Sequence record: PP400782
Direction: 5' to 3' (one strand)
Length of the DNA: 64,000 nt
Source of the DNA: Escherichia phage FL31
Of the stretch, positions 10,046 to 10,962 are shown piece after piece (positions within the stretch are counted from its first letter, which is position 1; every line of letters starts with the position of its first letter). A model generated the notes under the pieces. That model made no database searches. It saw nothing but the letters and a program-made list of their open reading frames with translations, and had not been told where the DNA came from. The translations under genes were made by a program, and so were the position numbers.

Positions 10046-10345
10046 ATATACCTTGTCGGGGTTCCACCTGCTAAGGCAAGTGTTTGTACGAAACGCCGGG
10101 ATTCGAACCCGGTTATTAAGTAGTTGACGCTACTCAATATTTTTAAAAGGCCATATCTCGACCATATCCGAACGTTCCGTCAAAAACGCTACTCGGCTTA
10201 CGGCAAAGATATTTCCTCGAATCGATAATTCGGTGCGCCGTTTCTGCTGTGATATAAGGGGGCATTAACAAAACATAAAGATTTATTAATGCCAGTCCTT
10301 ACTCAGGGAACATCAGTCCGACGACTTACCGGTAGCGACCCGGCT
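10046..10345 (-). ncRNA. Possible stable structured RNA(s), tRNA-like T-arm element
   Basis: No ORF; minus strand contains CCGGGTTCGAATCCCGG (perfect T-arm) but no cloverleaf could be built; position matches where T4 encodes small stable RNAs (recall). Confidence 0.25.
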
Positions 10346-10347
10346 TC

Positions 10348-10692
10348 TTATTTTGGCATATCATCAATTTGCTCTCGACGCCGACGCCATAGATTAATCG
10401 CTTCATAAACACATTCTGCGTTTGGTATATGACGGCAATAATATAATGATTCGCGTTTCTGGAATCGATGTTGCAATGGGATTTCGTTTAAAAGGTCTTT
10501 ACGGTCAAAGTATTCAAAACTAGTTAACCCGGAACGGTTTTTAATGAACTTCCAATGACCAAATTCATTTTGAACATAGATGTAATCTGCATGTTGGTAT
10601 AACAAATTAATCAATCGGTCTGAAATAACTGTATCATGTTCGTTAAAATAAAACGTTAAATCATGAACTACTAAGTAAACATTACCTTTCAT
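10348..10692 (-). CDS. Hypothetical protein (114 aa) within the tRNA region
   Basis: Trimmed to ATG 10690-10692 with RBS GAGGAAA; track TTG start would overlap tRNA-Arg. Confidence 0.5.
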   Translation of the reverse strand: MKGNVYLVVHDLTFYFNEHDTVISDRLINLLYQHADYIYVQNEFGHWKFIKNRSGLTSFEYFDRKDLLNEIPLQHRFQKRESLYYCRHIPNAECVYEAINLWRRRREQIDDMPK

Positions 10693-10710
10693 ATTTTCCT
10701 CACTTAAAAT

Positions 10711-10787
10711 TGGTCGAGACAGAAGGATTCTAACCTTCAACCTACGGATTAGAAGTCCGTTGCTCTATACAATTGAGCTATGCCTCG
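10711..10787 (-). tRNA. tRNA-Arg (anticodon UCU)
   Basis: Minus strand folds as cloverleaf: acceptor CGAGGCA/TGTCTCG (one G-U), D-arm GCTC..GAGC, anticodon arm ACGGA-CTTCTAA-TCCGT, T-arm GAAGG-TTAGAAT-CCTTC, encoded ACCA. Confidence 0.8.
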
Positions 10788-10887
10788 ATGATGCGGCTTT
10801 GGGTGTTTCAGTGTTACTCGTTTGTAGGTTCTACTTTTAACCCTTATTCGAACAACTTACCTACCTAAGAGCGTACTCACCGCGAAT

Positions 10888-10962
10888 TGGTGGCCCTGGC
10901 TGGTTTCGATCCAGCTACCTATCAGTTATGAGCTGACAGCTCTCCCATTGAGCTACAGGGCC
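10888..10962 (-). tRNA. tRNA with CAU anticodon (Met, or Ile if lysidine-modified as in T4)
   Basis: Minus strand: acceptor GGCCCTG/CAGGGCC, D-arm GCTC-AATGGGA-GAGC, anticodon arm GTCAG-CTCATAA-CTGAT, T-arm GCTGG-ATCGAAA-CCAGC, encoded ACCA. Confidence 0.8.

Follow-up and report, generated by a model that had tools for sequence, protein, structure and literature searches.

A tRNA and stable-RNA locus of a Mosigvirus with orthologs of T4 rnaC and rnaD and a phage-borne pseudoknotted RNA motif between two tRNA genes

The tRNA region of Escherichia phage FL31 (record PP400782; positions 10046-10962 of the 64,000-nt stretch of DNA analysed here, which we call the window) is very likely an operon of tRNAs and stable RNAs of a Mosigvirus, read from the minus strand, from which structured RNAs would be released by processing to act through their shapes. 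In minus-strand order it contains a middle-promoter-like site, a tRNA with a CAU anticodon, a pseudoknotted RNA motif, tRNA-Arg(UCU), an open reading frame (ORF) of 114 aa, rnaD, rnaC and a terminator. All of the RNA features lie on this strand, and the motifs pointed out in a preliminary description of the window appear on the plus strand as reverse complements. Positions 9300-11400 are 99.9% identical to Escherichia phage vB_EcoM_G2469 (Mosigvirus, RB69-like, T4 group; G2469 below). The 300-nt stretch 10046-10345 is the direct ortholog of T4 rnaD (species 2 RNA) and rnaC (species 1 RNA), both already known, and within it rnaC has the shape of a tRNA and is held by very strong purifying selection. 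The 100-nt spacer between the two tRNAs (10788-10887) carries a copy of a different RNA, which belongs to a pseudoknotted family essentially confined to phages and, as far as can be told, undescribed, being absent from Rfam 15 and from the searchable literature.

The spacer motif occupies 10883-10793 on the minus strand and consists of about 90 nt arranged in four helix segments nested in one another (a, b and the two parts of c) and a pseudoknot of 6-7 bp. Helix a pairs 10883-10880 with 10796-10793, the 3-bp helix b pairs 10871-10869 with 10819-10817, and helix c is made of an outer part (10864-10860 with 10828-10824) and an inner part (10852-10850 with 10831-10829). Pseudoknot d then pairs the c loop (GAAnAAGGGUUnnnAGUA) with the strand that follows b (10844-10838 with 10816-10810). 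The GTTCGAAT that had been noticed earlier in the spacer is present at 10853-10846, where it provides one strand of a short helix and the start of a conserved loop; as a T-loop it is not conserved across the motif family. The structure is visible only by comparison, as the single-sequence fold of the spacer is uninformative (z = 0.0) and the minimum-energy fold is wrong for this RNA. An inner extension of helix a (GUG/CAC) was considered and rejected, since it conflicts with helix a and is unsupported in the other subtypes.

Compensatory changes can be seen by eye in an alignment of nine sequences. In a MAFFT alignment of 24 distinct copies of the window type, not fitted to any structure, 90.0% of the cells are paired, against 65.1% in shuffled alignments and 33-47% with slid partners; both sides have changed in 18 of the 25 pairs, and the covariation score is 0.646 versus 0.169, a value reached by none of 500 shuffles. 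About 30 loop and junction nucleotides are invariant in these copies (ACGCU, CGAAUAAGGGUU, AGUA, AAC, GAAA, ACCC and AA), and the helices contain G.U pairs, in keeping with an RNA transcribed in the direction of the tRNAs. With a covariance model made from this alignment the window copy reaches 100.5 bits (E = 1.4e-29). The model also matches 97 of 100 metagenome loci held out from it, in which 87.1% of cells are paired (62.9% shuffled, 34-50% slid) with a covariation score of 0.553 versus 0.162, although this alignment was fitted to the model and so leans towards the structure. The model finds no match in T4, RB3 or RB69, nor in the T5 tRNA region; in RB69, which lacks the motif, the two tRNAs are 6 nt apart instead of 100. 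Elsewhere in the window there is a weak partial match at 63076-63156 on the minus strand (13.8 bits, E = 0.21), without the core and probably due to chance.

The wider family shows the same exchange of paired bases. Among 145 distinct copies the variable pair of helix b is G-C in 105, C-G in 19 and mismatched in one, and the two varying pairs of the pseudoknot are A-U, U-A or C-G (66, 57 and 5 copies) and G-C or A-U (101 and 41). Two junction bases (alignment A4, columns 98 and 103) are strictly linked, as C+A in 28 copies and G+G in 116, without being Watson-Crick partners, and go together with the form of the opposite junction, YGAGUAC or YAGUGAA. This divides the family into two core subtypes, of which the window copy represents C+A. 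One of its pseudoknot pairs is mismatched (G10842.A10812), whereas 23 of the 24 aligned copies have G-C there; the near-identical relatives G2469, F27 and mogra carry the same G.A mismatch.

How widespread is this RNA? The whole spacer is common to only six phage records (including G2469, F27, mogra and Ec2/Ec3-ASingh), whereas about 85 nt of it are 75-85% identical to unannotated DNA of very different phages: T5-like phages of Klebsiella, Pectobacterium and Proteus, T4-like phages of Pectobacterium, Providencia and Morganella, the Klebsiella jumbo phages RaK2 and K64-1, a Stephanstirmvirinae phage and an Erwinia Henunavirus. At the eight loci inspected, from eight unrelated phage lineages, the motif always sits inside a tRNA array in the orientation of the tRNAs, and ARAGORN calls no tRNA in its place. 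A degenerate pattern of the core finds 74 loci in IMG/VR and more than 120 in metagenomes among the matches listed, against two matches in 185,579 bacterial and archaeal species (one genome each), both on contigs of metagenome-assembled genomes. No Rfam 15 family matches the window copy (E<=10) or any of 14 loci covering window-type and permuted forms (E<=1). Full-text literature searches by context and by sequence strings returned no description of the motif, the 10,006 unnamed candidates of Fremin et al. 2023 (PMC10690425) lying outside their coverage. The spacer is also no remnant of the RB3 tRNA-Tyr or tRNA-Asn, with which it has no meaningful alignment. Our preliminary suggestions for it, an RNA like T4 species 1 and 2 or a decayed tRNA, thus give way to membership of a separate and widespread pseudoknotted family.

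Family counts from here on refer to 147 distinct copies from phage and metagenome contigs among the matches listed. In 102 of these the helices follow the window order and in 38 the order is permuted. A tRNA on the same strand lies within 1.5 kb of 83 copies, and in none of the 147 is a tRNA found nearby on the opposite strand; about 44% have no tRNA within 1.5 kb, and two of them follow a dUTPase gene. Window-type copies are in effect structured 5' leaders: in 38 of the 60 that have a downstream tRNA, this tRNA starts 10-24 nt after the core, a few nucleotides past helix a, and upstream tRNAs end 43-65 nt before the core, just ahead of helix a. Several permuted copies are instead 3' trailers that start 4-5 nt past the CCA end of a tRNA. 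The permutations are natural and circular, with every helix kept. In eleven IMG/VR copies a small loop (often CC-GAAA-GG) caps helix a and the chain begins and ends within the c loop, so that helix c is formed by the 5' and 3' ends of the RNA and covaries (GCCACC/GGUGGC, GAGUGGC/GUCACUC, GCAGC/GCUGC, GAUUGGC/GCCAAUC); other copies have a long insertion in helix a or a reduced a. Six distinct copies are found inside phage transfer-messenger RNA (tmRNA) genes, just past the stop codon of the tag, at the usual site of pseudoknots PK2-PK4. The placement is based on an ARAGORN tmRNA call with the tag GSSVQKLAMVA and on an Rfam tmRNA match of 46 bits (E ~1e-16). The example at L053:2893-3362 is a 470-nt tmRNA with a complete permuted motif after the tag stop, and the others (L106, L134, L135, L155 and L177) are likewise on phage contigs of ~100 kb.

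What is the motif for? Of the readings that we weighed, the most likely, which we hold tentatively, is that it is an autonomous folded module that binds a partner. It is possible, if rather doubtful, that it is a small self-cleaving ribozyme cutting tRNA-array or other phage transcripts at a fixed site in its fold. All helices remain intact in the natural circular permutations, with a open in the window type, a GAAA-capped with the ends in the c loop in the eleven IMG/VR copies, and further forms besides; circular permutation among small RNAs is typical of hammerhead and twister ribozymes. The permuted copies start close to tRNA CCA ends, an invariant G stands right after the pseudoknot strand, and most copies have an opposite junction of 7 nt, which usually includes AG. 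The motif is phage-specific, intergenic and tRNA-adjoining, as are the HDV-like theta ribozymes (PMC10879173), and its arrangement fits that published for pistol, with the P1 loop paired to the P2-P3 junction and an opposite junction of fixed length (PMC6154101). Self-cleavage is in this sense a candidate activity suggested by topology.

However, no Rfam ribozyme family matches any of the natural permutations (E<=1), and the two linked versions of the core, C+A and G+G, would be unusual for a catalytic centre. Cleavage in the six copies inside phage tmRNAs would nick the tmRNA, the window-type RNA would already be freed by the cuts at the flanking tRNAs, and a site fixed in the fold cannot be the tRNA-proximal end in both leader- and trailer-type copies. 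Mapping the motif onto hammerhead (CUGANGA / GAAA) fails, as the position that should be an invariant G lies in helix b and covaries as C/G, and an HDV-like mapping finds no P3 or P1.1 and no conserved C. A wider proposal, in which a motif with pistol-like topology and at least three natural circular permutations would let phages cut tRNA-array and other transcripts, we rate lower than self-cleavage as such and regard as doubtful; if it were true, the copy in G2469, F27 and mogra would be the first recognised in cultured coliphages.

The position of the copies suggests another reading, which we consider unlikely: that the motif is a cis-acting element of the tRNA precursor (an insulating spacer, a director or block of RNase E or exonucleases, or a determinant of processing order) with no function once released. 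Spacing to the tRNAs is tight, as helix a ends a few nucleotides before the mature 5' end of the next tRNA in the 38 of 60 copies mentioned and the upstream tRNA ends just before a; the motif is always on the tRNA strand. It also takes the PK2-PK4 position in the six tmRNAs, and the tmRNA pseudoknots PK2-PK4 are thought to aid folding and stability. Yet ~44% of the copies lie away from any tRNA, some 30 invariant loop and junction nucleotides in 24 copies are far above the needs of an inert spacer, and RB69 and most Mosigviruses do with a 6-nt spacer between the same two tRNAs. A folded module that binds a partner remains our preferred, tentative reading of the spacer RNA.

We turn now to the 300-nt stretch downstream, for which the preliminary suggestion of stable RNAs like T4 species 1 and 2 proved correct. 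In blastn it matches 802 phage records, at 91% identity to T4 and 94% to RB3, and the curated records (T4T, RB3 and RB68) annotate rnaC and rnaD under the match. Mapping of coordinates from annotated T4T and RB3 places rnaD at ~10232-10352, with a 5' hairpin followed by a long irregular hairpin (fold of rnaD alone, z = -3.5), and rnaC at 10087-10225, both on the minus strand. Full-length rnaC is identical to that of T4, and likewise to that of RB3, at 138 of 139 positions, and rnaD at 108 of 121 (T4) and 116 of 121 (RB3). The flanking protein genes (tRNA.2 and tRNA.3/4) are only ~77% identical between the window phage and T4. At 99.3% between two genera, rnaC is therefore far more tightly constrained than the genes beside it. 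The order of the two RNAs and their 5-nt spacer AAUUA match T4 and RB3, and rnaC is the last RNA before the terminator. It is followed by a conserved 3' trailer (10046-10086), which aligns to T4 and RB3 with 37-38 identities and one 9-nt deletion. In T4 rnaD comes directly after tRNA-Arg, and the gene for the homing endonuclease segB lies upstream of tRNA-Arg; here rnaD does not directly follow tRNA-Arg and has no encoded 3' CCA, ending in ...GGCGCACC(G), that is ...GCACCG instead of the ...GCACCA of T4. We judge these to be traits of locus layout and not of homology. As a whole, positions 10347-10015 (333 nt) are far more stably folded than shuffled sequences (z = -7.55).

The statement in the preliminary description that this stretch contains a perfect T arm holds (CCGGGTTCGAATCCCGG, 10111-10095, minus strand), whereas its companion, that no cloverleaf can be folded, is wrong for rnaC. 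The minimum-energy fold of rnaC alone (-50.2 kcal/mol, z = -4.6) is a tRNA-like structure with four arms: a 7-bp acceptor-like stem (nt 2-8 with 131-137, including two U.U pairs), a long irregular hairpin standing in for D and anticodon arms, an extra arm of 10 bp, and a T arm, which has UUCGAAU as its loop and, as tRNA T arms do, borders directly on the acceptor strand. This fold is kept across genera. In an alignment of rnaC from five genera (T4, the window phage, EcS1, LC53 and ABTNLPp2) 94.4% of the cells are paired, against 39-47% with slid partners, for a structure that was derived from one of the aligned sequences. Ten pairs show compensatory changes. One of them is in the acceptor stem and another in the T stem, and these two elements are 100% paired in all five genera. 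The last three phages carry unannotated rnaC homologs without rnaD, located between two tRNAs: EcS1 (Kagamiyamavirus, L090:1203-1356), LC53 (Winklervirus, L091:1203-1358) and ABTNLPp2 (Gelderlandvirus, L092:1120-1277). In EcS1 and LC53 the homolog exactly fills the inter-tRNA gap, and in LC53 the T-loop is altered to UGCAUCC with the stem kept. An internal 8-bp acceptor (ACGGAACG with CGUUUCGU), taken from the Rfam tRNA-Sec alignment of rnaC, was rejected, as it needs a G.U to A.C change; the terminal 7-bp stem is preferred because of an A-U to G-C change in the comparative data, and the internal pairing may be an alternative conformer. From its fold, rnaC very likely descends from a tRNA.

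Could RNAs of this shape be directed against the host? We think it quite unlikely that rnaC and possibly the spacer motif are decoys or sponges for host defences, as a tRNA mimic for anticodon nucleases or as an aptamer for an immune signalling nucleotide. rnaC keeps the acceptor/T-arm minihelix and has no anticodon arm. The motif is phage-only with two core subtypes at linked positions, and ligand-specificity variants of aptamers differ at linked positions. When the T4-like phage BW1 adapted to the semi-permissive E. coli host ECOR34, the only mutation common to all lines was a single-nucleotide polymorphism (SNP) inside rnaD (PMC12685909), which gives a rare hint of a host-specific fitness effect of these RNAs. 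This convergent SNP falls in rnaD, however, and the decoy reading draws on analogy.

Very improbable by comparison is the suggestion, made beforehand for both regions, that the 300-nt stretch and the spacer are decayed tRNA genes of a larger T4-like cluster. The perfect T arm, a weak tRNA-Sec-like alignment at 10088-10180, the eight to ten tRNAs that relatives have at this locus and the likely descent of rnaC would all be in keeping with it. But rnaC is far better conserved than the flanking genes, all of its helices are kept by compensatory changes, and the T4 RNAs accumulate in infected cells, where RNAC and RNAD have been seen by Northern blot as late RNAs (PMC9697503). The spacer, for its part, has neither an alignment to the RB3 tRNAs nor a tRNA-like fold and belongs to its own structured family of more than 140 copies. 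Neutral decay is refuted by this pattern of conservation.

Weakest of all is the reading of the small ORFs over the stretch as true protein genes, which is extremely improbable despite hypothetical proteins annotated over this DNA in several records (G2469, PP01, NicPhage and similar), given that the ORFs are short, that the curated T4-group records place rnaC and rnaD here without any coding sequence, and that conservation tracks the RNA helices, including G.U pairs. The stretch had been called free of ORFs, which stands at a length of at least 60 aa and fails below it, as the ORF list has frames of 34-51 aa that overlap it. The one annotated in G2469 as a hypothetical protein (G2469_00144; 42 aa, 10143-10271, minus strand) has TTG as its start codon in the ORF list and runs across the rnaD/rnaC boundary; the call is most likely false. 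Such ORFs over rnaD and rnaC are best read as gene-caller artefacts. Several other T4-group records also call small proteins here, and most leave rnaC and rnaD unannotated.

Only two tRNAs are found in the entire 64 kb, on which ARAGORN and Rfam at its gathering threshold agree, in line with the first count: tRNA-Arg(UCU) at 10711-10787 (71.1 bits with the Rfam tRNA model) and tRNA(CAU) at 10888-10962 (62.4 bits), both on the minus strand. A permissive Rfam scan of 9900-11150 (E<=10) adds no further tRNA, the top extra hit being tRNA-Sec inside rnaC (10088-10180; 17 bits against a gathering threshold of 47, E = 3.2). Neither ARAGORN nor RF00005 detects a canonical cloverleaf above threshold in 10046-10345 or 10788-10887. 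At the homologous locus T4 has eight tRNAs, the number given for it before, RB3 has ten and RB69 has the same two as the window. The reduced set is thus real, and it is the norm for RB69-like phages (Mosigvirus). The CAU tRNA is labelled tRNA-Ile in phage F27 and tRNA-Met in most records. Its acceptor sequence GGCCCUG is common to T4 tRNA-Ile and RB3 tRNA(CAU), and in blastn it is 81.6% identical to T4 tRNA-Ile over 49 nt, with the 5' half aligned. As both position and sequence match T4 tRNA-Ile(CAU), we take it to be, probably, a tRNA-Ile of the lysidine type, reading AUA and not AUG.

How would these RNAs be made? We propose that tRNAs, spacer motif, rnaD and rnaC are transcribed as a single unit bracketed by the middle-promoter-like site (11052-11025) and the terminator (10045-10017), and that the host enzymes of tRNA processing would excise them from one precursor. 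The putative promoter, likely the start of the unit, is a T4-type pattern match on the minus strand (MotA box ATTTGCTTTA, 12 nt, then TATTAT) about 60 nt upstream of the first tRNA. It was located with T4-specific patterns searched by script, after a scan for generic sigma-70 promoters and terminators returned no site on the minus strand. At the other end, the hairpin with a T-run noted previously is borne out as an intrinsic terminator, in which a G+C-rich hairpin is followed by UUUUUU (-16 kcal/mol, z = -3.3); it is annotated in G2469. RNase P would generate the 5' end of each tRNA and would also cleave rnaC at its acceptor-like stem, and 3' ends would be trimmed as in tRNAs. Excision of the two flanking tRNAs would then free the spacer motif as an RNA of ~90-100 nt with defined ends. 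The freed RNAs would act via their folded shape, and not via coding or an anticodon, and rnaC would most likely occupy a factor that normally binds tRNA. T4 species 1 and 2 arise from a common precursor that is processed by RNase P and other host RNases, as described in the T4 literature of the 1970s-80s. Accumulation of a stable ~140-nt rnaC cut from a tRNA precursor is established for T4 only, and by analogy would hold here.

Several points weigh against this picture. The promoter is known from a pattern match alone, and co-transcription and RNase P processing are carried over to this phage from T4 and from the geometry of the locus. Unlike in T4, a 345-nt ORF stands between tRNA-Arg and rnaD, so the 5' end of rnaD must arise differently. 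Since ~44% of the motif copies have no tRNA nearby, release by tRNA processing cannot be universal, and the pseudoknot mismatch G10842.A10812 means that the copy in the window may be weakened or impaired. The mimicry of tRNA by rnaC towards a tRNA-binding factor is a conjecture, as the functions of rnaC and rnaD have gone unexplained for ~50 years; a review gives their biological roles as unknown (PMC3014915).

The remaining features are context and not part of the RNAs. The 114-aa ORF between tRNA-Arg and rnaD (10348-10692, minus strand, from the ORF list) belongs to phrog_3355 (E = 1e-50), of unknown function, matches no Pfam family above its cut-off and has ORF150c as its counterpart in RB69. 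RB69 and most Mosigviruses have an additional ORF of 516 nt (ORF151c, L004:684-1199) between tRNA.2 and the CAU tRNA, which the window lacks at ~10963-11058; its absence accounts for the ~400-nt difference in length and for the matches in three pieces. Just past the terminator, ahead of the next gene, there is a late-promoter-like pattern match (TATAAATA, 10008-10015, minus strand).

The identification of rnaC and rnaD is routine but useful for annotation, as in most RB69-like and many T4-like records these RNAs are unannotated or overlain by spurious small proteins. No other sequence of the locus is as well conserved as rnaC (99% across genera), and it has tRNA-like relatives in at least three more genera, which sharpens the question, now 50 years old, of what it does. 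We consider the spacer motif to be the more valuable result, being compact, strongly covarying, phage-restricted and pseudoknotted; as it is found in cultivable phages of E. coli, Klebsiella, Proteus, Pectobacterium and Erwinia, its function is directly testable. Should the motif prove to be a ribozyme, the short list of ribozyme classes, about a dozen, would grow by one.

Compared with T4, the locus has direct orthologs of rnaC and rnaD in the same order, with the same AAUUA spacer, trailer and terminator. It differs in that T4 rnaD abuts tRNA-Arg and ends in an encoded CACCA, whereas the window phage and RB69 have a 345-nt ORF in between and the window has CACCG. Most Mosigvirus records, RB69 included, leave the two RNAs unannotated. 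In the T5 record (AY543070, 28-42 kb) eight 'stable RNAs with unknown functions' are listed among the tRNA genes (RNAI, RNAIII, RNAIV, RNA1, RNA2, RNA2H, RNA3 and the 719-nt RNAX). They are of the same kind as rnaC, rnaD and the motif in being non-tRNA species among tRNA genes on the same strand, several of them described as tRNA-like. As homologs of the motif they were rejected, as the T5 tRNA region contains neither a model match nor the core words, but other T5-like genera do carry the motif (Sugarlandvirus, Myunavirus and Novosibvirus).

Among ribozymes the closest likeness is to pistol, with which the motif shares its topology: hairpin c corresponds to P1, and its loop forms a 6-7 bp pseudoknot with the strand joining b (P2) and a (P3) (PMC6154101). 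Three helices and a pseudoknot from the P1 loop to the P2-P3 junction are all present in the motif, with covariation. An A-rich linker after the hairpin, a near-constant opposite junction and the association with phages are also common to both. The conserved nucleotides are different, however, and the opposite junction has 7 nt (YGAGUAC or YAGUGAA) where pistol has the 2-nt G-U junction of its cleavage site. A conserved junction of 13 nt in the motif likewise takes the place of one that has 3 nt in pistol, judging from the env25 sequence. Open and closed ends are exchanged between the two RNAs: in the motif the b and c strands are joined by UUAGG, and the ends are open at helix a or in the c loop, whereas the pistol chain ends are at the 5' side of P1 and the 3' side of P2. 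The Rfam pistol model has no match to the window copy (E<=10) or to the 14 loci, permuted ones included (E<=1). The HDV-like theta ribozymes lie within 5 nt of phage tRNAs (PMC10879173) and so are, like the motif, small pseudoknotted RNAs a few nucleotides from phage tRNA ends. But the motif has no P3, L3 or P1.1, no conserved equivalent of the J4/2 C (YAGUGAA in most copies) and no P1 at its 5' end, and HDV-family models of Rfam do not match it (E<=10 for the window copy, E<=1 for the 14 loci).

The likeness to tmRNA is one of position, as a complete permuted motif stands in the place of PK2-PK4 in six phage tmRNAs. The window copy, in contrast, has neither a tRNA-like domain nor a tag reading frame, the Rfam tmRNA model does not align to it, and ARAGORN finds no tmRNA in the window. 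Short resemblances between the motif and the E. coli tmRNA (CGCUCUUAAG, AAACCCAAAAG and AAGCAUGUAG) are treated as chance, given the different cyclic order of the blocks and the missing Rfam alignment. GOLLD and ROOL, finally, are structured RNAs of phages and prophages, of unassigned role, which are often encoded beside tRNA islands and are probably transcribed together with these (PMC12286853, PMC5737381). In these respects the motif resembles them, but they are 500-800 nt long and form multimeric cages, whereas the motif has 85-130 nt and no similarity to them in Rfam. If the spacer motif is a binding RNA, as we tentatively prefer, it would join GOLLD, ROOL and the stable RNAs of T4 and T5, and would add to a view of phage tRNA islands as hubs of functional non-coding RNAs.

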